Source: an uncultured Planctomycetota bacterium (GTDB taxonomy: Bacteria; Planctomycetota; Planctomycetia; Isosphaerales; Isosphaeraceae). Taken from it: DNA of 64,000 nucleotides. How positions within the stretch are numbered: position 1 is the first letter of the stretch; each line of letters starts with the position of its first letter. The DNA lies in NCBI GenBank assembly GCA_963823665.1, contig CAWGMQ010000007.1, positions 288,001 through 352,000 on the forward strand. The letters are read 5' to 3'. Positions 18,131 to 33,304 of this stretch are shown piece by piece. Under the pieces are notes generated by a model that searched no databases, had not been told where the DNA came from, and was given only the letters and a program-made list of their open reading frames with translations. Made by a program: the position numbers and the translations under genes.

Positions 18131-21100
18131 ATGCCGATTTACACGCGTCAGTATGCCGAGGTCTTTGAGAACGCACGGGCGGCCGAGGATGCGGTCCGGC
18201 GGTATCTCACGCTCGTGGAGACTGACCTGCGGGAGACGTCGCTCTTGGCGATGGCTTCCTGGCAGGACGCGGGGATTCCTCGTGATCTCTGGAAGCCGGC
18301 GCTGCCGAATCTGTTCCGGGTGGCGGCGGGGCTTCAGGAGCCGTCGTTCGGGCGGTGGAATGGCATGCTGCACGCGCTGCGCGAGGCGCTGGCCTGCGTG
18401 GGGACGACAAGCGAGGCGGCACGGTCGCCCAGTGCGCTCATCGCCATTCTCGACTGGCTGCGGACCCCGGCCGAACTGGAGGCGATCGAATCGCTTCGGG
18501 CGCTGGCGCCGCTGCTGCACTACAGCCTGCCGGCGCGGGCGAGCCGGTGGGATGCGATCAGCCTTTCAGTCTGCCTGCGCAATCGGATCGCCCACGACGC
18601 GGCCGGGGACGAGGCGTGGTGGGCCGCGATCGTCCCCATGGTACGCTCTCTCTCCGCTTCCTTTGCGGCTGTGCCGCCATGCCTCGAACGCGAGGGGCTG
18701 GTTTATCCCCAGCCGTGGTTCCTCGAGAGGCAGGGGATCTGGCATGCCTTCAGCGGCATCCGCGGGGAATACGCTCTCTTTTCCTCCATCGGCGGACAAT
18801 CGCTCCGGGTTTCGCTCAACGAGACGGAGCTGATCGATGCGTTCCAGCAGTTGCTCGGCCAGGCCGAGCTTCAGCAGTCTTCGTTTCGAGAGCTGATGAA
18901 GCGACTCGCCCCGGAGGAGCACAAGGGGGTGCTCGTCGGCGACTTTTTGCTCGGTCCGCCGGCCGCGGAAGGGGGGTTTGCGGTCGTGCACCGCGGCTAC
19001 CAGCTCAGCATCGAGCGAAAGGTTGCTCTCAAGGTCTTCCCGGATGCGCTCACGCAGTCGAAGCGGGCGCTCTTGCGGAGGGAAGCCGAACGGCTGGGTG
19101 CGTTCAATTCGCCGGAGATCGTCCGGCTGATCGGCTTCTACGAGGAGATTCCCTGGACCGCACCGCGCGAGATCAGCCTGACGGGTGAAGCATGGTTCGA
19201 GGCGCTCAAGAAGGGATCCGGATTCAAAACGTTCCTGGCTATGGAGTGGGTCGGCGGCGAGGATCTTGCGGCGGTCATCGACCGTCCGGCCGCGAATCGG
19301 CCCCCGATCGACGTTCTGATCGGCTGGTTTGAGACGAGCGCCCTTGCGCTGGCGAAGGTGCATGCCGCGGGGCTGACCCATATGGATGTGACTCCGAACA
19401 ACATCCGGGTCACGCCCGAGGGGCAGATCAAGCTGATGGATTTCGGGATCGCGCGCAGCGAGACCGAGCGCCAGGACTTGATGACCCGCACGAGACTGGG
19501 CGTCGGCACGCCGGCCTACATGGCTGCGGAGCAATTTGACGACCAGGGCAACCGTCAATCGGATGTTTATTCGCTTTGTGCCACGTTTTATGAGTCGTTC
19601 ACCGGCCGCCGGCTGTATGACCACGATCGGATCGACCTTCAGGAAGTGAATCGCCGGAAGCGGGAGGGAATCGCGCCTGAGTCACCTCGGAGCATTCGGT
19701 CCGAGATTCCGTGGGAGGTCGAGACGCTTCTTCTCGGGGGCTTGCATGTCGAGCCGGGGCTCCGGCCCACGAGCCGGCAGGTCGCCGACGATTTGCGGCG
19801 AATCATCGAGAATCGGCCGATCAAGTACCGGCGGCCGCCGCTGCATCGCCGGGTGCGGCTGTGGTATCGCCGGCACCAGGCGGCGGTTCGGGTGGCGGCG
19901 CCAGCCTTGGCTGGGCTGTTGTTCGTGGCGATCGTGCTTGGGGTTTTCTGGCGGGGAGCTGAGAGGCGATCGGGCGAGCTGGGGAAAGAGGTTGGCACGC
20001 TTGCAAAGAAGGCGGAATCCGAGTCAAAACGGGCGGAAACGGAGGCCGGGAGGGCGAAAGACCAGGAACGGCTCAAGTTCTTGCAGCAATACATCGCCGA
20101 TATGAGGCTGTTGCCGGGGTGGTGGAAGGACGCCCGCGTGGACCTCATTCGCGACCGATTACGGCCGTATGCCACCGCGGCCACCTACGATCCTCGCGGG
20201 TTTGAGTGGTATTACTGGGACCGCCTGGTGAGCGCGGCAAGCGCGACTTGGAAGCCCGAGGATCGGACCCGTTCGCTCGACTGGTCTGCTGACGGCAAGA
20301 CGCTCTATGCGGCGGACGTGAAAGGGCGGGTACTCGCCTGGAACCGCGCAACCGCGGAGAGCCGGCAGGTTCGCGGCGCGGGCTCGGGTGCGATCGCGGT
20401 GACCTCCGCTCCGAGCGGTTCGAAGCTTGCGATCACGACTGCTGCGATCAGGCGCACGGCGGGCGAGCCGCCGGAGTCGTCGTCGATCGAGATCATTGAC
20501 ACGGAGACGGGCGGCGAGCTGCGCAAGATCACGACACGGGGGTTTGGCTTCCGAGCCGCGGCGTTCGGCCCGAACGGCCGGCGAATCGTGACGAGCGATG
20601 TCGCGACCAATCTTTGGGTGTGGGATGCCGTGAGCGGGAAGCCCGAGGTCGACCTGGTGCACAACCCGAACGCACGCCGGGACTTGACGAACCCGATGGA
20701 GGTGCTTGGCGCCCACGACCCGCATCAAGGGCCGGTGCACGCGCTGGCGTTCAGTCCGGTCGATGCGACCGTGGTTGCCAGCGGCGGCGACGATGGGGCG
20801 ATCGGGCTCTGGAACACTCGAACCGGGCGGCACCTGGGATGGCTCGGCGAGCGACGCGGCAGTGTGGCCTCAGTCTCCTTCAGCCGTGACGGCACGAAGC
20901 TGGTGAGCCACTCGCTGCCAAGACCGGCCGGTCAGTTCCATCGCGTGGCGATCCCCGCGGAAATCGACGTCTGGCGAGTGCAATCGCATGAGCGGATTCG
21001 GCGGATTGAACTGGCCGATGAGTACGAGGGTATCACGTCCGACGGGTTCTCGATTCGCAAGGGGAACTTTCGCGCCGACTTCGTGGGAGACGATCGTTTG

Positions 21101-24100
21101 ATCGCCGCGGCGATCGGGAACGTGGTTCGGGTCTGGGATCTCGCAACGGGGTTCGTCGTCAAAGAGCTTAAAGGGCATACCGCGACGATCAACGCCCTGC
21201 GCGCCTCGCCTGACGGCGTGCTCGTGGCCAGCGCGGACGCGGGCGGCGAGGTGCGGATCTGGAACCTGAACGAATCCGAGGAGATGGAGACAATCCGGCA
21301 ATTCGAGGGGCCGGCCCGCTCCGTCGCGTCATCTTCCGCTGCCGGCGAACGCCTGGTGGCGTTGTATGAGTCACCGGGCAGCACGTCATCGAACGGCACG
21401 GTCGATCCGAGCGAAAGCCGCAATCTATATATCTTCAACCGGTCGGGTGGGGCTGAAGCGCCGCCCGAGAGGGGAAGCGGTTACTACCTCGGCACGGCCC
21501 AATCGCCGGCAGGGGGCCGCATTGCCACGTTTGACATGCTCAAGGAAGAGATCATCGTGTGGGAAACTGCGAATGGAAAAGTGATCCGGGTTTTTCCCGT
21601 GAAGCGAAAGGAAGAGGAGCCGAAGGGCAGGAACCGCGGGGGCTCACGTGAGAAAACGGACGTGCGTAGTTTGGCGTTTCGCGATGAAAAAGATTTGTAC
21701 GCGGTGACGGGCGAGGGGCTCTGGCGATTGCGGGTAGACTCGGGCGCTCTTGAGACGGTCGCGGGCCTGGCGGTCGGCTCGTCTCCGAAAGAGGCGACAC
21801 CCGACTTGCTTGTCCTCGAAGACGCGGTGATGGCGCTTTGCTTTTCACCAGACGGACGGATGGCCGCAGCGGGCACCGGTGGGAGGCAGGTGATCGTTTA
21901 CGATGCGGGCACATGGAAGGAGCTCGCGCGGTTGCGCGGCCATTCGCGTGGGATCACCGGGATCGCGTTCTCGAGTGATGGCCGGCGGCTCGCCAGCAGC
22001 AGCGGACGATATTTCCGGCTGGGGGCGGCGGAAGCGAACGACCGGCCGGGCGAGGTGATCGTGTGGGACACGACGACCTGGGAGGACTGCCTGCGACTGA
22101 CTCATCCCGACGCGTCTGAGTTTGCGGGGGTCGCATTCGGCGATCGCGATCGCACGCTCTTCGCCGCGGCGAATCCCGTAACAGTTAGCCCGGGCAAGCT
22201 TCCCCGCGGCGAGATTGTGCGCTGGGTGAGCACGGCCGGCGTCGCGCGGATCGCGGCAGCGGCCAATGCCGCGCGTTCGACGGCCGATTCGGCCGCTCGA
22301 GTGCGTCTCCGCGAGAGCAAGCCTGTTGGATTGCCGCCGGCTTCAACCAAGCTGTCGCGTTCGGGCGAGACAAAGCCGCTCGAAGGGGCCGTATTCCGCT
22401 CACCCGGCATGTTCATGGGCATCGCCGGCGTCACCGGCTTCACGTCGGTGGCGGTTCATCCAACCGGCGAGCTGATCGCCGCGGCAACGATCATCAGCCG
22501 GCTGATACTCTGGGATGCTCGAACTCAGGAGGTTGTGGCGGAGGCCGTTCTTCCGCCGGTTTCCTGGCCGGGATACGAGATCACGTTTAGCCCGGACGGC
22601 TCGCACTTGATCTGCACCATCGGTGACGACGCGTTCGTCCGGTCGATTCCAGGCCTGGGCGAGGCAAATTTCGAGGACGCCGCGCTGAACTTGAGACCGG
22701 AGATCGCGGCGACGATACGCCGGATCAAGATCGGCGGCGAGACGGTTCCTCTCCGACCCGCCTACTCGATGGAGGGTGCTTCACCGTTCAGCCGGGACGG
22801 CCAGCTCCAGGCGCTGGCCACGCGGGGAGACTCGCCCGCCCTCGAGGTCATTTCGGTGCCGAAGAAGTCGAAGTTGTTTTCGGTGCCGCTTGCAGGCCCG
22901 CCGATCCAAGTTGGCGTCTCGGCTAATGGCAAGGTCGCTTATGCCGTCACCCGGCCCAGCGTCGCCAAGGGAGGCGCCTGTGCCGGCCTCGGCGCTCGAG
23001 CGATGGGAGGTTCCGGGCGGGAAACCGCTCGGGGTTACCAAGGGCATGATGAACCTGGTCGCGCTGTCTCCGGATCTGGAACGATCGCTTGAGATGGCGA
23101 ACGGGATCGAGCTGTATGCGCGAACTATCCACGGGGCAGCGTGCGGCGGCACCGTTTGCCACCGAGGCGGGTTTTAGGGGGGTCGCGTTTTTCCCGGACG
23201 GCGAGCACGTGGCGACGTTCGGAGGTCAGAACTGGACGAAGGTATGGAAGATATCCACTTTGCTAAAGATCCCTGAGAACTTGCTGTTCCGCGCGGTGGG
23301 AACGCTGCTCGTCGCGCCTGACGAGAAGACGATTGCCTACGTCGATGCGTACGGCTGGCCCGCGCTGTACGACGTGGCGCGGCACCGAGCGAGCAAGCTG
23401 GCTCTCGACACCGCGCCGCGGGTTGGGGCAGCGAAGGCCGGCTCACGGCCGCGAACGCGCGGAAGCGACAATGCTGCACGTATGCATGGGCTGGTGCCAT
23501 GGCACTTCACGCCCGACGGACGAACGCTCGTGGCTGCTGCGTTCGCCGGAAGCGCACGCGCGAATCCGACGGCGTTCGACGTGAATCGCGGGGTCGAGGT
23601 TCCGATCGAAACGCTGCCCGAGGACGTCCGCCCGCCCGGTGCTCCCGCGGGCCAGAGCTTCCGGGGGTTCTTGCTTGCGATGCACGCAGCGTCCGACTCG
23701 AAGATGTTCTACTTGCTCCAGAGCATGCAGCAAGGCGCACCGCGAGGGGTTCGGAGCGAGCCGCCGTATCTGCTGTGGGATGGGGCCCAATCGCATACCG
23801 TACCGGCCCTGGGCGAGACGGCAGGCGGATTGAAGTTGCCGTGCTTCAGTGAGCGAGGCACTTTCGTGGCGGGTTTGCTGCCGGGAATCCGCCGGCGCAC
23901 CAAAGGCGCGGTCGAGCAGTCGGGCCCGGCGGTTGTCGTCCTTTCGACGAGCGACGGCAAACTCGTTTCGCGAATTCCATGCGGAAGCGATGATGTGATC
24001 TCGCTTCGGTTCACAGGCGCCGAGGACGCGCTGTTATTGCACCAGCGAGTTACGGGCAAGGCGACGGCGCTGGGGGAATTCTCACTGGCCGCGTTTGATC

Positions 24101-24990
24101 CCAGGAGTGGACGCGAGCTAAATCGACGCGCCGGCCTCCGGACCACTTTCCTGGCAGTGTCGGACGACGGAGGGCGTCTGGCTTCGCCGGTTGAGGGTGC
24201 GATCTTGATTGAATCGCCCGCAACGAAAACCGAGCTTGGGCGGATCGCGTTTGACGACTGGCCGATGCAACCCGTTGCCTTCCTGGCGGCCGGCACGAAG
24301 CTGATCACTACGGGAGCAAACGGGGCGATCCGGCTCTGGGACAGCTCGGGCCGTCCGATCGCGGTTCCGCGGCTCCAGGAGGTCGTTCCAATCGTCGAGC
24401 CGGTTGCACCCGCGACCAAGGCGAACGTGCCCGTGCCAAGGGCTCCGGCCGCACCGCGGCGACCAGCAACGGCGAAAGCTGGAAAGCCGAGCCAAGCGCG
24501 ACTGGCCGACGAGCTGAAAGAGATGGCCGTGCGTCTCAATGGTTCGCCGCAGGGCGCCTACCGTGGGCGGTTTCCCGCGCTCGCGGCCGGGTGCGAGATG
24601 CTGGCCTCGAAACTGGCGGCCGGTGAGACTCCCACGGCGGATATCGCCAAGGAGATGGAGCGGTTTATCAAAGATGCGAAGGACCTGAAAGAAGAAGGAG
24701 GGAAGCACTCGCCCTTCAAGGACTTCAACACGACGTACACGGATCGCAGCGGGCGCAGCGGACTGCCCGGATACAAGGCCAAGTTCTTTCACGAGGCGCG
24801 TGATCTCTTCGGCAAGACTATGTCCCGATCAAGAGAGACGCCCATCCTGTACGGGCAGCGGCTGTTCGCGGAGATGATCATGACGCTCGAACGGCAGATC
24901 GAGGACCTCACGGGCAAGCTGCCGGATTCGTCGCTGCTGGAGGAATGGCGAAAGGCGGGGCCAGAGAGCGGTGACAAACCGGGAGGGTGA
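18131..24990 (+). CDS. Giant protein (~2290 aa): HEPN-like N-terminus, Ser/Thr kinase, TM/coiled coil, multiple WD40 propellers (frameshifts near 22975 and 23115)
   Basis: LRNRIAH; kinase motifs EGGFAVV, VALK, HMDVTPNN, DFG, GTPAYMAAE and SDVYS; RGFEWYYW; many WD40 repeats (e.g. GHSRGITGIAFSSDG). ORFs 18131-23092 and 23089-24990 are bridged by a third frame reading LERWEVPGGKPLG. Confidence 0.85.
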
Positions 24991-25073: not shown

Positions 25074-27005
25074 ATGGCGAAATCGCGTGGCACGGGTGAT
25101 TGGCTGTTACTCGAGGAGAAGCTGGAGCGAGGCGACCCTTCGTTCGTGGACGATCTGCGATCGTTTCACGACGCCGAGGTCCTGGCCGGGTTTGCCGCTC
25201 GCTGGTTTGGGGACAAGCGGCCGGCATCGCGGCGCGTGATGCTGGAATACCTCGATCGTCCGCTGAACGCCTTTCGGCATGAGGCGCTGGTGAAGCGGCT
25301 CTTCAAGGCGGCCGAGGCTGCCGGCGATGATGAGGTCATGGCGCGGTTCCTGGTGCTTTTCGACCGCTCGGTGCGCCGGGAGGAGTGGCGGAGGCGGCAC
25401 GTGGAATGGGCGAAGGTCAAGACGGAAGCGGCCGCGCAGGAACTCATGGCTCACTGGCGTGCCCTGGGCTTTGACAGCGTTCAATCCTTCAACTGGCAGC
25501 GCGGGACGATCCAGATTCGCGGTGACTGGCACGAGGTGCGTCTTGGGATGCCTACACGCACCGCGATGCCGCGCGACGAGATGAAGCATCGAAATCCTCG
25601 CACGGGCGAGCTGATTTCGGACATCAACACGCGGCTCCAGAAGTGGTTCGGAAATCATCGCGTGGGAGAGCCGGTTCCACGCCGGGTGCAAAAGCTGATC
25701 GAGCGGCTGCGTCTGTTCTCGGTGGCCACGCGGCAGTACTTGAGGCGCAGGGCCTGGCGCTACTTCCGGCGAATGGGCAAGACGAACCCGCAGCGGTACG
25801 TCGCGGCCATGTCGCGGGCGCTGGAGCGATACACCGATGGCGACGTTGCCGACGGACTCGCGCTGATTGATAACTGGGGTCTCATGCATGCGCTTTTTCA
25901 TCGGAGCGAGATTCTGACGGCAAAGCCGGGAGGGTGGGTTCCGACCGAAGGGCGCTCGCTTGCAGAGCTTTCACCCGCGCCGATCTACGAACGGCTGTGG
26001 GAGCAGGCGCCGCGGGCTCTTGTCGAGTTGCTGTTTGCCGCGCGGTGCCGGCCAGTGAGGCAGTGGGCCGTCCAGATGATTCGCCGGCATGATGGCGCCC
26101 GCGCGGCCGTCAAGCTCGACGAGCTGATCGGTCTGCTCGCTCATGAAGAGGCGGACGTCGTGGCGCTGGCGGTCGAGCTTTTCCGGGAGATGAAGGGCAT
26201 CGACACGCTTGCTGTCGATCAGTGGATAGAGCTGGTCGAGAAGGCTAACCCCTCGGTGCTTGAGTGGATCGTCGAGCTGCTGGAGAGGTTCTTCGATTCC
26301 GAGCGGGTGACGCTTGCGCAGGTGGTCAGGCTTGCGCGATGCCGCAGAGTGCCCGTTGCGCGGGTGGGTTTGAAGTGGCTCTCGAACAAGGTGCCGCAGC
26401 ATGCGGCGGCCGACACCTTGCTGCTGGGTCTCACGGAGGCGGAGTGTGAGCCGCTGCGCGGGCAGATCGTGCGATTGGTCAGGGAACGACTGGCGGCAAC
26501 CACGCGGTTCGATCCAAGCTGGGTGCTCGAGTTTCTGGATAGCCGGCATGCCGACGTGCGCGCCGAAGGGATCGAGTGGTTCCGGTCGGAATCGCGTGCT
26601 CGCGACGACGTGACGATCTGGCCACGGCTGATGGAAACTCCCTACGACGATGTGCGCCTGTTCTTGATCTCGGCGCTGGAATCTCGCGTAGGCGGGCGCG
26701 ACGTCGACCGCGCGGTATCTCACGGGTTGGATCCGGAGGCGTTGCGGCTGCTCTGGGCGTCGGTGCTCCTGAACATCCAACGGGGTAGCCGGGCCAAGCC
26801 GACGGTCGTGCGGCAGCTCGTGCGGGCGATGAAACGCAGGCCGGCGGATGCGGAATTGGTCTTGCCGATTCTGGCTGTGGCGCTGCGATCGTCCCGCGGG
26901 CCTGAGCGCCGGGTGGGGCTGGCGGCGGTGGCGGAACTGGTCGAGGGGGATGTGCAGACGACGAAGGTACTCGCCGCGATTTTTCCGGAGTTGAAGTTAC
27001 TGTGA
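25074..27005 (+). CDS. HEAT/ARM-like alpha-solenoid protein, retron-associated
   Basis: Helical Leu/Ala/Arg-rich repeats (LDSRHADVRAEG, LMETPYDDVRLFL); LFSVATRQYLRRRAWRYFR; directly upstream of the ncRNA, SWIM and RT genes. Confidence 0.75.
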   Translation: MAKSRGTGDWLLLEEKLERGDPSFVDDLRSFHDAEVLAGFAARWFGDKRPASRRVMLEYLDRPLNAFRHEALVKRLFKAAEAAGDDEVMARFLVLFDRSVRREEWRRRHVEWAKVKTEAAAQELMAHWRALGFDSVQSFNWQRGTIQIRGDWHEVRLGMPTRTAMPRDEMKHRNPRTGELISDINTRLQKWFGNHRVGEPVPRRVQKLIERLRLFSVATRQYLRRRAWRYFRRMGKTNPQRYVAAMSRALERYTDGDVADGLALIDNWGLMHALFHRSEILTAKPGGWVPTEGRSLAELSPAPIYERLWEQAPRALVELLFAARCRPVRQWAVQMIRRHDGARAAVKLDELIGLLAHEEADVVALAVELFREMKGIDTLAVDQWIELVEKANPSVLEWIVELLERFFDSERVTLAQVVRLARCRRVPVARVGLKWLSNKVPQHAAADTLLLGLTEAECEPLRGQIVRLVRERLAATTRFDPSWVLEFLDSRHADVRAEGIEWFRSESRARDDVTIWPRLMETPYDDVRLFLISALESRVGGRDVDRAVSHGLDPEALRLLWASVLLNIQRGSRAKPTVVRQLVRAMKRRPADAELVLPILAVALRSSRGPERRVGLAAVAELVEGDVQTTKVLAAIFPELKLL

Positions 27006-27029: not shown

Positions 27030-27267
27030 ATGATCTCGCGGGCGGCCGGGTCGGGAACCGAGAACCTGAATGCTGCGGCGTTCCGCCGCGGCCGACATTG
27101 GCCCAGCCTTTGCGTCCCCGAGGCCGTTGTTCTTTCGCTGCCGGTGCACCGTCGCCGTGGCACTGAGCCGACGGACGGTCTGCCACAGCGACGGTGCACC
27201 GGCAGCTCGGTGAACGACCTCGGTCCGTGCCTCGAAGTCGGTCCGGCCCGGCCGCCCGCGGGATCAT
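27030..27267 (+). ncRNA. Retron msr-msd ncRNA
   Basis: Terminal inverted repeat 27030-27055/27242-27267 (26 bp, 3 G-U pairs); msr-like hairpin 27072-27092; long msd hairpin 27137-27162/27181-27206 with outer stem 27118-27128/27213-27223. Confidence 0.85.
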
Positions 27268-27298: not shown

Positions 27299-28994
27299 AT
27301 GAATCTGACGCTTCAATATCGGAGGCGAAGTGCGATCACGGAGGTGCCGGAGGGTCTGGATGTCACGCTGGCGCCGAACCTGCGGCGCGACCGCGTGAGC
27401 TTCGAAGGGACACTCCGGCATCCGGTGCGGTTTCGGGAAGCGATGGGGGCGCTGCACGACGTGGTGGTGAGCGACTTGCGATACCAGCCGCGCGACAAGA
27501 CGGCTTACGAGGCATACAAAGCCGAGCAGCGGAATCGCGAGGCAGGAATTCGCCGTCAGGTGGAGTCGCAGGAAAGAGCGGCGATTCTCAAGCAAGCGTT
27601 GCCCGAGTTGCCTGAGGGTTATGTCGCGGACCTCGAACGGCGCTACCGAAAGCTGCGCAAGAGCTACTGGGGGGCGCGGCAGAAGTACTCGAATTACCTG
27701 AGCCGGCACGATCCGGAACTCTGGCGGCTGCTCTTTCCGTGCGACCCGGTGATCACGGTGGCGCCGGATTGCCTCTTTTTCGAGTGTTTCAGCGCGGACG
27801 AAAGCAGCTACGGCTGCTTGACCGTGGAGCGCGCGGCGTTCGAGCGCGAGCGCGACGTCGCGCTCGGGACGACGAATGTCGATTATTCGTGGGCCTTATA
27901 TGAGCACTTTCAGAAGCTGCGGAGCTATCGCGAGACGCGGTTTGCGATTGATCCTTCTGGGTTCGAGGTCGCGGTTGACCAGGCCGGCGATTATCGCGAG
28001 GAGAAGATTGACTTGCCGGGGGGTTGGCTGCGCGGGTTCATGCAGCTTCAGGCGGCCATGAGCTTGCCGATGCGCAGGGTGGGGATTTCGCGTGAAGGGC
28101 TTTATTCGATCCTGGCGTTTCTCAGGCGGCACCGGGCGGCGAAGAGCCCGCGGGCGCTGCGGTTTGAGCTGGAGCGCGGGCGGCCGCCGGCGATCGTGCT
28201 GGAGCCGTGGGAAGAGCGGATCACGCTGCACGGAACTGCTTATGGCGGCCCGCGCGACGAGACGATTCGCGTCTGGGGGCGCGACCGGCTGCGCCCTGGG
28301 ACGCCTGCTGCCGCTACTGGACGAAGCGGAGGTTTATCTGCTGGGTACCGGTCTGCCGAGCTTCTGGTCGATTCGGATGGGAGAGATGCGGCTGCTTCTG
28401 GGGCTTTCGGGCTGGACGGCCAACGACTGGACGGGCACCGCTGCGCTTGATCAGCTCGGGCCGCCGGCCGATCCGAGCGATGCGCTGCTGGGCGACATCG
28501 CGGCGACGTTCGAGAAGTCGCCAGCCTTGACGTTCAGCCAGATTCGTGAGCGAACCGGGGCTGCGCCGGCGTTTGTCGCGGCGGGGTTGTGCCGGCTGGC
28601 CTCGCTGGGGCAGGTCATTCACGATTTGCACGCGGGCCTGTATCGATGGCGGCAGGTCATGCCGGTGGCACTTTCTCTGGATGAGCTTGGGCCCGAGAGC
28701 CCGGAGACGGTGGCGGGTCGCGAACTGTATTACCGGCGGACCGTGCGGGTTGACCGCGATGTAAAGCGGGGCGACGGCCTGCGCATTCTTGAGGGCGAAT
28801 CGGGAGGGCGGGTGGTCTCGCTGTTGCTTGATGCGGATTGGCGAATGGTGCGCGGGCGCTGCACGTGCTCGCACCATTTCACAGGTGGGATGCGACGTGG
28901 GCCGTGCCGGCATTTGCAGGCGCTTCGCCTGGCCACGACTGGGGCGAAACAAGCGTCGAGCGTCGAGGCCTGGTTCCAATCGTTTTTCCAGTAA
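27299..28994 (+). CDS. SWIM zinc-finger domain protein, retron-associated (~565 aa; frameshift near 28295)
   Basis: C-terminal GRCTCSHH...GPCRHLQAL (CxC..CxH); N-terminal DPVITV..FECFSADESSYG and GTTNVDYS; WGRDRLR continues as LGRLLPLL in the next frame. Confidence 0.85.
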
Positions 28995-29005: not shown

Positions 29006-30594
29006 ATGGGCTGGTTCGCGCGGGTGTTGCAATGGTTATTGGGGGGCCGCGATCGCGGGGCCAGCCGCGGTGCTGGCGCGTCGCCTGCGGTCGAGGCGGA
29101 CCCGTACTTCGCCGGGTCGCCCGCGCCGGTCATCAAGAAGTCGAAGAACTTCGAGCTTGATGCGGGTGCGTTCTTGCCGATCGCGCGTGAAGAGATTATC
29201 GGAACGGCGCGCGGGCGGAATCTGCTGGCGAATCCGTGGTTTGGAAGGCGTGATCAGATTCCGCCCGTTAGCGATCGGCGTACGGTGCTCATTGACCGCG
29301 CGATGGTGACTCAGGGGCTGATCACTCCGGAAGAGCTGGCCGAGATTCACAGCGCCGGCGAGGAGATGGAGCGGGTCAGGCCGAGCATCGCTGGTACGGA
29401 GCATCAGGCAGCGCTCGCGGGCTCTGCGGCGGTCGAGGCTGAGAATGAGGCCCGCTTGCGGCTCAAGGCTTTGAAGAAGGAAGAGGCTGCGCGGCGGCGA
29501 GAGGAGCGTCAAGCGGCGATTGCGCATCGGCGAGCGACCGACATCGTTTTTCTGGGCGCGGGGTTTCGGCGCAATTGCACGACCGACAGAGCGATCTCGA
29601 TCGTCTGGCCGCGGAGGGGCTGCCCTCGCTGAGCACGCCTGGGGAGCTGGCGGCGGCGCTCGGGCTTACGATTCCGCGCTTGCGCTGGCTGGCTTTCCAC
29701 AGCGAGGCGGCGACGGTTTCTCACTACATCCGGTTCACGATACCGAAGCGCAGCGGCGGCACGCGCACGCTGGCGACGCCGCACCGCACGATGGCGCGAA
29801 TGCAGCGCTGGATCTTGACCGAGATCGTGTCGAAGCTGCGGGTGGAATCGCATGCTCATGGTTTTGTGACCGGGCGCAGCATCCTGACGAATGCTCGCGA
29901 GCACGCGAACCGGGCGATTGTGGTGAATCTGGATTTGAAGGATTTCTTTCCGAGCATCGGGTTTCCGCGGGTGAGAAGTGTTTTCAAGAGCGCCGGATAT
30001 TCGCCGGCCGTGGCGACGATTCTGGCGCTCCTTTGCACGGAGTGCCCGCGACGGGCGATTGAGTACGACGGCGTGCGGTATTTCGCGGCGACCGGGCAGC
30101 GCGGGTTACCGCAAGGGGCGTGCACGAGCCCGGGGCTTTCAAACCTGGTGGCGAGGCGGCTGGACCGGCGTCTGGGCGGGCTCGCGGGCAAGCTGGGTAT
30201 CAGCTATTCGCGGTATGCAGATGATTTGACTTTTTCCGGCAATGGCGAACTCGAGGGGCGCGTCGGGTACTTGATGGCACGAGTGCGGCATATTGCGGAC
30301 GATGAAGGCTTCGCCGTGAATGAGGCTAAGAGCCGGGTGTTGCGGCGCAATACGGCGCAGATGGTGACGGGCCTGGTGGTGAACAGCCGGCCTGGGGTTG
30401 CCCGGGCGGAGGTGCGGCGGCTGCGGGCGATTTTGCATCGGGCGCGGACGGAAGGATTGGAGCGCCAGAATCGGGAGGGGCGGCGGGATTTTGTTGCCTG
30501 GCTGCGCGGGAAGATTGCGTTTGTGGCGATGGCGCGGCCGGAGGTGGGGGCGAAGCTGCTGGGTGACCTACAGAGTGTGCTGGGGAGGAGCTGA
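29006..30594 (+). CDS. Retron reverse transcriptase, Mx162-like with N-terminal extension (~529 aa; one-base frameshift near 29555)
   Basis: IPKRSGGTR, AHGFVTGRSILTNAREH (retron NAxxH), DLKDFFPS, LPQGACTSP, YADDLTFS and VTGLVVN (retron VTG). No maturase or endonuclease domain. Confidence 0.93.
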
Positions 30595-30706: not shown

Positions 30707-30916
30707 TTACTTGCTTTTATGACGACGACCGCCAATTAGCAGCAGGCCACCCGAGAGCAAGGCGATGGCACCCGTCGCCAAGCTGGGATCCATCTCAGGG
30801 GCCGTCGATCTTGCAACGGCCGTGGCCGAGCAAGCGCTCAGAACGAGTACAAATCCAACGGCCCATGAAACCGTTGGCAAAGCCTTTGGGGCCCACTTTG
30901 GCGAATCTGGCTTCAT
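30707..30916 (-). CDS. 69-aa secreted peptide with a VPEID-CTERM-like sorting signal
   Basis: RBS AAGGAGG; signal peptide ending AVA; APEMDP, TM helix and basic tail GRRHKSK. Confidence 0.8.
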   Translation of the reverse strand: MKPDSPKWAPKALPTVSWAVGFVLVLSACSATAVARSTAPEMDPSLATGAIALLSGGLLLIGGRRHKSK

Positions 30917-31413
30917 CGACAATACCTCCTTGGTAATTGAGGGGAACTCCGGGGGCAATGCGCCGCGGACGTGTGTTCATCATGATACTGCATCAAAACT
31001 GAAACCTGAGCCCAACATAAGCAATTGTTCTAGAACGTTCAACATGCTCGCACAGATTTCGGATCCGAACGAATCAGGACGGAGCGCAGAGGTCCTTGAT
31101 GTGGTGCCGGGGCGGTGGCGCACATGCGATTTCGACATCGCGGGAGGCTTCGCACGTGTCGCGCGTTGTCGAGGTAGGCACGGGCTCCCTCGTGCCGGTC
31201 TTGCCGCAACAAGTCTTTGAGGATGTAGCGTCTGCCAGCGGGTTCTACGAGGTCAAGCTCGCGGGCGGAATCTCGAGGCTGATGCTCGAGGACGCAAACC
31301 AGCCTCTAACAGAAGCGAACGAAGGAAACGATGGGGGAGACAATTCAACGGCATTCGTGATTCCTGGTATCATCACAAGCCGACGAATTACTCTCGTGGG
31401 GAGTCATCGGCCA

Positions 31414-31494
31414 ATGTCTGATTCGGTTCGAGTGCTGCTGGACTCATTCGATGCTCTCTCGGAGACTGAACGCGCGGAGGGCTCGCGACGATGA
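31414..31494 (+). pseudogene. Truncated copy of the small protein at 32479-32685
   Basis: MSDSVRVLLDSFDALSETER, then divergence and an early stop. Confidence 0.7.
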
Positions 31495-31637
31495 GGTTCA
31501 CGGTCACGAAAGTCGTCGACGGCGCGTTCAGCTCCGATGAAGTTCGCCGGCTCACCCATTCGCCTTCGCAGGATGGAATCAGGAGCGGGGGTCAGAAATT
31601 CGTGTTATGCCTCAATAACGAGGACAGGACGGGGGCG

Positions 31638-31935
31638 TTAGCGGCGTGGTGCCGCTGACTTTGAGCCGCGGCGCGGCGCCCGCGCCAGAAACGCCGACGG
31701 AGCGATGGCGAAGTGCTCGGCGAGCTTGAGGACCTGCCCCTTGGTGAGGGAGCGTGCGCCGGAGAGGACTGCCGAGATGGTGGACTGCGCGATCCCGACC
31801 GATTTTGCCAAGTCCGTCTGGCTGAGACCGCCCGCTCGCATCAGCTCGCGAAGTACGTCGGACTCGGAGACATCCGCGATCGGGACGTGCGCCTCGTCGT
31901 AGCCGGCGATCAGGTCGGTCAAGACGCCGACGTAG
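31638..31935 (-). pseudogene. 3' half of a HigA-like antitoxin
   Basis: Near-identical to the C-terminus of 32849-33304 (SQTDLAKSVGIAQSTISAVLSGARSLT); the 5' half is missing. Confidence 0.8.
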
Positions 31936-32064
31936 TGCCGGGTCGAAACTGGCTTCGAAAAGCCCTTCCTGATGTTTCGCTACGGATAGCGCGAACGCCA
32001 GGGCAGGTTCAGGGATTGGTCCGTCCGGTCGAGGACCACCGCGTTAGCTCGGAGAGGCGGGCTC

Positions 32065-32274
32065 TTACTTGCTTCTGCGACGACCGCTAATTAACAGCAG
32101 GCCACCCGAAAGCAATGCCATGGCACTCGTCGCCAAGCTCGGATCCATCTCAGGGGCTATTGTAGGACCTGCCAGGGCCGGGGCCGAGCAAGCGCTCATA
32201 ACGAGGACAAATCCAAGGGCCCACGAAACCGATGGCAAAACCTTCGAGGGCGATTTTTGCGAAACTGGTTTCAT
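32065..32274 (-). CDS. 69-aa secreted peptide with a VPEID-CTERM-like sorting signal (paralog)
   Basis: RBS GGAGG; signal peptide ending ALA; APEMDPSLATSAMALLSGGLLLISGRRRSK. Confidence 0.8.
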   Translation of the reverse strand: MKPVSQKSPSKVLPSVSWALGFVLVMSACSAPALAGPTIAPEMDPSLATSAMALLSGGLLLISGRRRSK

Positions 32275-32478
32275 CGACGATACCTCCCTGGCGATTGAAC
32301 CGAACCCGGGGCGAAGCGCCGCGGATGTACTTTCGTCAAGATACTGTGACGAGACTGAAATCAGCGGGGGTTCAGCATACGCGATTGTGCTGGAACATTC
32401 AACGACTGGCCCGAGTCATCCGTGATTCCTGGTATAATCACAAGCAGACGGATTACTCTCGTGGGGAGTCATCGGCCA

Positions 32479-32685
32479 ATGTCTGATTCGGTTCGAGCGC
32501 TGCTGGACTCATTCGATGCTGTTTCGGAGACGGAACGCATCGAAGCTGCGGTCGAGATACTCCGGCGCGTGAGGTCGACAAAGTCCGAACTGCCGGATGA
32601 CGCGTTGGTGGAAGCTGCGGACAGTTTGTTCTTACTGCTCGACGCCGAGGAAGAGGGCGCTGGGGAACGATCGGACGAACCGTGA
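32479..32685 (+). CDS. Small acidic hypothetical protein (antitoxin-like)
   Basis: RBS GGGGAG; MSDSVRALLDSFDAVSETERIEAAVEILRR..LPDDALVEAADSLFLLLDAEE. Confidence 0.65.
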   Translation: MSDSVRALLDSFDAVSETERIEAAVEILRRVRSTKSELPDDALVEAADSLFLLLDAEEEGAGERSDEP

Positions 32686-32848
32686 TTCGGAGGTCAATGT
32701 GGTGGGCGACACGGTTCTTTTGTTTCTCCATCACAGTTTCATCGTCAGGCTCAAGGTAACCAGAGTCGTGAAGGGCAAATTCGAATATAGTGATTGTGCG
32801 GGTACCGCGAGCTGGTTCTCACTTTGCTGACCGGCATTATAAGGGCGA

Positions 32849-33304
32849 TTAGAGGCGTGATGCCGCTGACTTTGAGCCGCGGCGCGGCGTTCGCGGCAGG
32901 AACGCCGACGGCGCAATAGCGAAGTGCTTGGCGAGCTTGAGGACCTGCCCCTTCGTGAGGGAGCGTGCGCCCGAGAGAACTGCCGAGATGGTGGACTGCG
33001 CGATCCCGACCGATTTTGCCAACTCGGTCTGGCTGAGGCCGTTGGCTCGCATCAGCTCACGCAGCACGTAGGACTCGGAAACATCAGCAATCGGGACGTG
33101 CGCGTCTTCATAGGCTGCGATCAGGTCGGTCAAGACGTCCAGGTAGGCTTGGGCCCCTTCATCCCGGTCTTGCCGCAACAAGTCATTCATTACCTCGAGG
33201 GCCTCATCCAAGTGAGCCTCGTCCCTCAGGTGGATGAGCGGGAAATGCTTGACGAGTTTCAAGTAGGTGTCCGGCACCCTCCGGGCGGTAGCTTTCGCAG
33301 GCAT
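32849..33304 (-). CDS. higA: HigA-like HTH antitoxin
   Basis: YLDVLTDLIAAYE, LRELMRANGLSQTELA and HTH; RBS GAGGAGG. Confidence 0.85.
   Translation of the reverse strand: MPAKATARRVPDTYLKLVKHFPLIHLRDEAHLDEALEVMNDLLRQDRDEGAQAYLDVLTDLIAAYEDAHVPIADVSESYVLRELMRANGLSQTELAKSVGIAQSTISAVLSGARSLTKGQVLKLAKHFAIAPSAFLPRTPRRGSKSAASRL

Follow-up and report, generated by a model that had tools for sequence, protein, structure and literature searches.

The window analysed here, a 64,000-nucleotide stretch of planctomycete DNA, carries between positions 27030 and 27267 an element that is almost certainly the template RNA (msr-msd) of the type XIII retron beside it (probability of about 0.96, judged from sequence). 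This reading follows from the fold of the element, a conserved GAG, strand-specific wobble pairs, and linkage to genes for a HEAT-repeat protein, a SWIM protein, and a reverse transcriptase (RT). The first retrons discovered were of type XIII, and an element of this sort is expected in such a known system; the family is known, and the gene-order variant is new.

The element is preceded by an intact gene (25074 to 27005, plus strand) for a HEAT/ARM-repeat protein of 643 amino acids (PADLOC model HEAT-ARM_XIII, E 3.8e-190), which is modelled with a pLDDT of 92 as a mostly helical solenoid and has only generic ARM/HEAT structural matches (TM ~0.2). It is followed by the gene for a SWIM_XIII protein (27299 to 28994, plus strand; PADLOC model SWIM_XIII) and, 11 nucleotides beyond the SWIM stop, by the retron RT gene (29006 to 30594, plus strand; RT_XIII, E 3.1e-143). 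The original prediction placed the element in a 293-bp gap about 1.7 kb upstream of the RT: the HEAT stop at 27005 and the SWIM start at 27299 indeed leave 293 bp, and the distance from the ncRNA to the RT start codon (ATG 29006) is 1,739 bp. The RT has an extended N-terminus and, in the open reading frame 29575-30594, the motifs NAREH (region X, NAxxH), YADD, and VTG (region Y); its best solved relatives are retron RTs. RT_XIII is the top model with 476 bits versus 359 for the next, an assignment to clade 10 by profile rather than by a tree with named references. Thus, RT_XIII, SWIM_XIII, and the HEAT/ARM gene of type XIII are all present. The accessible text of the type XIII description (RT clade 10: Retron-Mxa1/Mx162, Mxa2/Mx65, Sau1/Sa163, and Nex2/Ne144; PMC7736814) likewise gives a HEAT/ARM gene, an N-terminally extended RT, and a SWIM gene with DEDE and CxCx12CxH motifs; an msr-msd of ~240 nucleotides is common to both (the Mx162 transcript is 241 nucleotides).

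The SWIM protein contains CxCx12CxH and the DEDE motif (D149, D157, E162, D195, and E234, with a last spacing of 38 versus the published 37). Its profile gave nothing significant against sequences of solved structures. The model of its homologue from locus L019, which is 66% identical over the N-terminal piece, has a pLDDT of 85; residues 34-371 match PCNA clamps (Z 21.0, rmsd 2.8, 230 residues), and residues 388-453 match winged helices. The protein is therefore modelled as a PCNA-like clamp fold with a winged helix, followed by the SWIM zinc finger, and a shared fold shows no function. The accessible part of Mestre 2020 (PMC7736814) suggested a transposase origin for SWIM, whereas the model here is PCNA-like; our literature search for retrons together with sliding clamps or PCNA returned unrelated papers only.

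Several neighbouring features were recorded alongside. Directly upstream of the HEAT gene lies a large Ser/Thr kinase gene with WD40 propellers (window positions 18131-24990), whose reading frame is broken near 23090. Downstream, positions 30707-33304 hold an apparent duplication of two small ORFs resembling secreted proteins and two similar HTH ORFs (31638-31922 and 32849-33304); we take the HTH ORFs to be HigA-like and the paired ORFs nearby to be small secreted proteins. A second retron-like RT about 200 kb from the window (L097:8129-9499, G000:C7) is best matched by the models RT_other and RT_outgroup, with no type XIII partners seen, and a distant SWIM_XIII homologue (L248:7174-11843, G000:C3) is followed by an ORF of 1,038 amino acids, with no RT match nearby.

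Inspection of the sequence found each of the predicted stems and mismatches at the coordinates given. The terminal repeat (27030-27055/27242-27267) forms 26 pairs, of which the three that are not Watson-Crick (27036/27261, 27051/27246, and 27055/27242) are all G-U on the plus strand, as anticipated. A better inner register pairs 27057-27061 with 27238-27242 after a 2-nt bulge (27055-27056) and leaves G27062 unpaired; the a2 arm then spans 27030 to 27061 and the a1 arm 27238 to 27267 (both on the plus strand), and the five closing pairs covary. The msr stem-loop (27072 to 27092, plus strand), the presumed RT recognition element, has 9 bp, a 3-nt loop, and a single U-G pair at 27074/27090, again in agreement with the prediction. 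Further in lie an outer msd stem of 11 bp (27118-27128/27213-27223) and a long hairpin of 26 bp (27137-27162/27181-27206). The two mismatches assigned to the long hairpin are C-A on the plus strand as proposed, but there is one in each inner stem, at 27124/27217 and 27156/27187. The features that characterize retron RNAs are thus present: the a1/a2 stem, the short msr hairpin, the long msd hairpin, and a conserved G left unpaired where the a1/a2 stem closes on its inner side (G27062). A second msr hairpin (27093-27111), predicted from the single sequence, was missing from the consensus fold. Folding of both strands of the 261-nt region gave z-scores of -9.4 (plus) and -10.2 (minus), and 0 of 200 shuffles was as stable. 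An Rfam search yielded nothing significant, only a sub-threshold chance match. The RNA profile had one match within the 64-kb window, and a 265-nt contig from the sequencing runs spans the ncRNA with 15 differences and 1 gap.

To place the element among homologues, we retrieved the best 80 out of 565 RT relatives; a nucleotide profile located the RNA in 32, which with the window element make an alignment of 33 sequences. The nucleotide HMM found no ncRNA in the other 48 of the 80 RT loci, most of which carry a remoter subfamily of the RNA or lie on short contigs. In the alignment, 97% of cells of the 21 core pairs are paired and 10 of the 21 show two-sided changes; no shuffle out of 500 scored as high and slid controls reached 29-51%, for a core structure itself derived from the same alignment. 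The homologues are kin, and p-values are therefore overstated. The msr stem-loop is paired in 98% of cells, with frequent G-U. Stems thus covary across the aligned copies, and the msr-msd identification of the original prediction is further supported by linkage: a genomic pattern scan found at least 121 stretches, and HEAT, SWIM, or RT genes lie beside the RNA in 77 of the 79 flanked loci among the matches listed. The remaining two loci are in genomes that carry a 61-62% identical RT elsewhere.

The division into RNA and DNA parts is suggested by the wobble pairs, counted with an aligner that scored G-U and C-A equally. Isolated mismatches on the plus strand (G-U/C-A) in the 33 sequences are 46/7 in the terminal stem and 29/2 in the msr hairpin, versus 1/29 in the outer msd stem and 4/13 in the long hairpin. 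In a non-redundant set of 39 of the 96 parsed elements, obtained by dropping hairpins more than 65% alike, the corresponding counts are 47/8, 21/1, 1/31, and 4/16, with 35, 10, 11, and 24 other mismatches, respectively. The 31 C-A mismatches of the outer msd stem largely represent one conserved position; the Fisher p of 2e-7 for the two variable stems is nominal and inflated by relatedness. For the msd, minus-strand DNA is the better-folding form in 92 of the 96 elements, and for the msr hairpin plus-strand RNA is the better-folding form in 94. The proposal that the outer parts fold as RNA and the inner part as DNA thus extends to the homologues as an opposite wobble bias, and a strand-biased mutation process should be unable to give opposite signs within one transcript.

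The same alignment points to the start of reverse transcription. All 33 sequences share the GAG at 27060-27062; its first two bases and the three preceding ones pair with 27238-27242 and covary, and G27062 is left unpaired, facing G27237. This register is present in 94 of the 96 parsed elements, with 4-5 of the five closing pairs formed in 89. In the accessible part of Simon 2019 (PMC6868368), the priming G lies at the inner end of the a1/a2 stem, in GAGC in Mx65, a context similar to that of the window. Because the GAG is invariant and its last base is unpaired at the inner stem end, as this rule has it, G27062 (plus strand) is the likely priming (branching) G. Of the other candidates originally put forward, G27055 is not conserved and G27060 is paired. 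The predicted reverse-transcribed DNA would run from 27237 to about 27112 on the minus strand (~126 nucleotides) and contain the 11-bp outer stem and the 26-bp hairpin, both fully paired as DNA via G-T; with DNA parameters, it folds at -50.8 kcal/mol on the minus strand versus -46.5 on the plus strand. Its length is within the 125-145 nucleotides predicted from the sequence, but the proposed template (~27100-27241) must be shortened, since 27238-27241 are paired in the better register of the terminal stem. The 3' end near 27112 was placed by a conserved TGCnTCCCC block (27111 to 27119, plus strand; columns 27111, 27113, and 27118 invariant in the alignment of 33), a putative RNA-DNA overlap at the 3' ends, and by a remark in the accessible text of a retron census that termination comes before AT-rich sequence (PMC10849725). 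For Mx162, an 8-nt RNA-DNA overlap is given in the part of Simon 2019 available (PMC6868368). Intact relatives are expected, with good confidence, to make msDNA; in what is accessible of the census, retrons of clade 10 rank among the best producers of RT-DNA (PMC10849725).

We found no mechanism described for type XIII in the literature searched. In the one we propose, the ncRNA would be transcribed within a HEAT-ncRNA-SWIM-RT operon (the promoter scan gave 0 sites, and co-transcription is thus assumed), and a2 would pair with a1. The RT would then bind the 9-bp msr hairpin, prime from the 2'-OH of G27062, and copy the template starting near G27237 and ending near 27112, and host RNase H would leave a branched RNA-DNA with a DNA hairpin of ~126 nucleotides. 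More speculatively, the SWIM protein, in which the PCNA-like and winged-helix parts hint at DNA binding, might hold this hairpin, and the HEAT protein might act as a scaffold; the variable hairpin could serve as a bait by which phage proteins that act on DNA are sensed, leading to abortive defence. Taken as a whole, the type XIII msr-msd with this mechanism is a probable explanation. An anti-phage role is somewhat favoured, and defence is the weakest link because searches of HEAT and SWIM revealed no catalytic toxin domain. In the literature searched, we found no type XIII system that had been tested for defence.

A domesticated role of the msDNA outside defence, such as DNA repair or the sensing of replication stress via the clamp-like protein, is a less probable but serious alternative. 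On the one hand, the missing toxin domain, the modelled clamp fold of SWIM, the existence of stand-alone SWIM homologues without an RT, and 0 matches to the ncRNA pattern in viral contigs would all fit such a role, as would vertical inheritance of type XIII, which follows the host 16S tree in the accessible text of Mestre 2020 (PMC7736814). On the other hand, patchy presence (28 of 121 family genomes) and fast hairpin change between tandem copies fit an arms race, and 8 of 11 retrons tested protected against phage, according to the part of Millman 2020 available (10.1101/2020.06.21.156273).

Another possibility is that the msr-msd is genuine but the locus is dead in this genome. Both downstream genes are frameshifted: SWIM near 28295, where the profile match passes from one frame (positions 1-287) to another (289-506), and RT near 29560, within a run of G (positions 47-95 of its profile in one frame and 96-423 in another). 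A pair of frameshifts within 3.3 kb would be consistent with decay, as would the long single ORFs in 113 SWIM and 118 RT homologues among 147 other unique loci; the RT of L019, for example, is one ORF. However, rpoB in this assembly is likewise divided between two frames, and assembly error is therefore probably the cause. Another tRNA-synthetase gene on C4 appears split as well (rpoC and valS are whole), the breaks fall within a run of G and a GC repeat, other few-contig assemblies have scattered breaks at other sites, and the RNA stems and catalytic motifs are intact. A dead locus is thus rather unlikely.

Finally, the long inverted repeats of the element, and 14-nt complementarity of 27128-27141 to the sequence preceding the SWIM start, might suggest a repeat, a MITE, a terminator, or a cis-regulator of SWIM translation with no link to reverse transcription. 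Such a reading is highly improbable: BLAST and a pattern search found one copy in the 16.5-Mb genome, which also argues against a genome-wide or MITE/REP-like repeat, retron genes flank nearly all listed copies (77/79), the RNA occurs equally after SWIM (62/100 loci), no terminator was called in the HEAT-SWIM gap, the SWIM-start pairing is seen in the window only and is not kept across the 24 parsed of 25 upstream loci, and the wobble bias is opposite inside one transcript.

With the element identified as a type XIII msr-msd, its place before SWIM can be compared across loci; the locus, tree, and family-genome sets overlap, and their counts are not additive. The ncRNA was found in 100 of 148 unique loci surveyed: 25 have a copy before SWIM (4 of them, L112, L139, L142, and L176, also after), 62 only after SWIM, and 13 have no SWIM in view. 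A tree built by a quick method from 50 of 85 RTs (the whole window clade and a sample of the rest), leaving out two upstream loci that lack a long enough RT match, puts 17 of 17 upstream-slot loci in one clade of 25 Planctomycetota RTs (SH-aLRT 96). Two slot changes suffice on this tree, the second being a return downstream in the nearest neighbours of the window. In the window's family, 28 of 121 genomes have the ncRNA pattern, 20 of them upstream (one in both slots), 5 downstream only, and 3 without SWIM in view; the RT directly follows SWIM in 15 of 15 family loci fetched at length. Judging by these sequences, the pre-SWIM position is a clade-level gene-order variant and not peculiar to the window genome. 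In a planctomycete lineage, the RNA gene seems to have been relocated ahead of SWIM a single time, probably through duplication followed by loss of the original. The published type XIII order differs in that the ncRNA there does not precede SWIM at a distance from the RT, although Figure 5 or the supplement of that source, accessible in part, may show the same order (PMC7736814). In type II-A Ec73, St85, and Vc81, an accessory gene likewise lies between msr-msd and RT, with a different RT clade, accessory protein, and RNA, as the accessible part of Simon 2019 has it (PMC6868368). The original warning that a search directly upstream of the RT would miss this ncRNA holds for upstream-only searches, but not for the PADLOC server, which scans whole genomes (PMC9252829), or the SPIRE survey, which scans 10 kb each side and has 26 planctomycete type XIII loci (PMC13712802); by the accessible descriptions, the search range of both covers the ncRNA.

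Other arrangements were also seen. L114, L129, and L136 have HEAT-ncRNA-SWIM without an adjoining RT and a 66-72% identical RT elsewhere in the genome (~24 kb further on in L114), L143 has ncRNA-RT alone, and L018 has HEAT and SWIM inverted relative to ncRNA-RT. Many family genomes hold a second type XIII system (L217-L246), whose RT is only ~50% identical and whose RNA is unmatched by the RNA profile used here.

Whereas the window has one template copy (predicted DNA ~126 nucleotides), its relatives carry up to three per RT, both points of difference from type XIII clade 10 systems as far as these are described in the accessible sources. Two or three tandem copies occur in L343 (G045:C2:419510-420151), L344, L134, L140, L141, L176, L113, L147, and L207, with a conserved msr, hairpins that differ in sequence and length, and one RT where the RT is in view. 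Six full comparisons were obtained from 11 multi-copy loci examined: the msr is 79-98% alike, and the hairpins are 49-74% alike in five and 100% in L142. In the HEAT-SWIM slot, three tandem copies are present in G045 and two in G046, with one RT (msr 93-97%, hairpins 49-74%). Our literature search, with most subscription papers outside its scope, found no natural multi-template retrons other than the repeats of Retron-Nex1 (Ne160; Simon 2019, PMC6868368, accessible in part), which are likewise several msr-msd copies per genome but lie without a nearby RT, whereas the copies here are inside the operon. Engineered arrays similarly combine several msr-msd copies in one construct, according to the accessible part of their description (10.1101/2023.07.17.549397). 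We tentatively suggest that the planctomycete type XIII template might be a position-independent, expandable cassette of one to three templates with a shared RT-recognition part and swapped hairpins, through which one RT could supply several msDNA baits to a PCNA-like clamp protein; the window would then be the one-copy state of a natural array.

The inner stems provide natural evidence of selection as DNA, and the switch between G-U and C-A is a simple means to map the RNA and DNA parts of untested retrons. The window clade yields nucleotide-level predictions (the priming G and the DNA ends), and the clamp-fold partner and the natural multi-template loci offer direct tests of the role of msDNA in type XIII.
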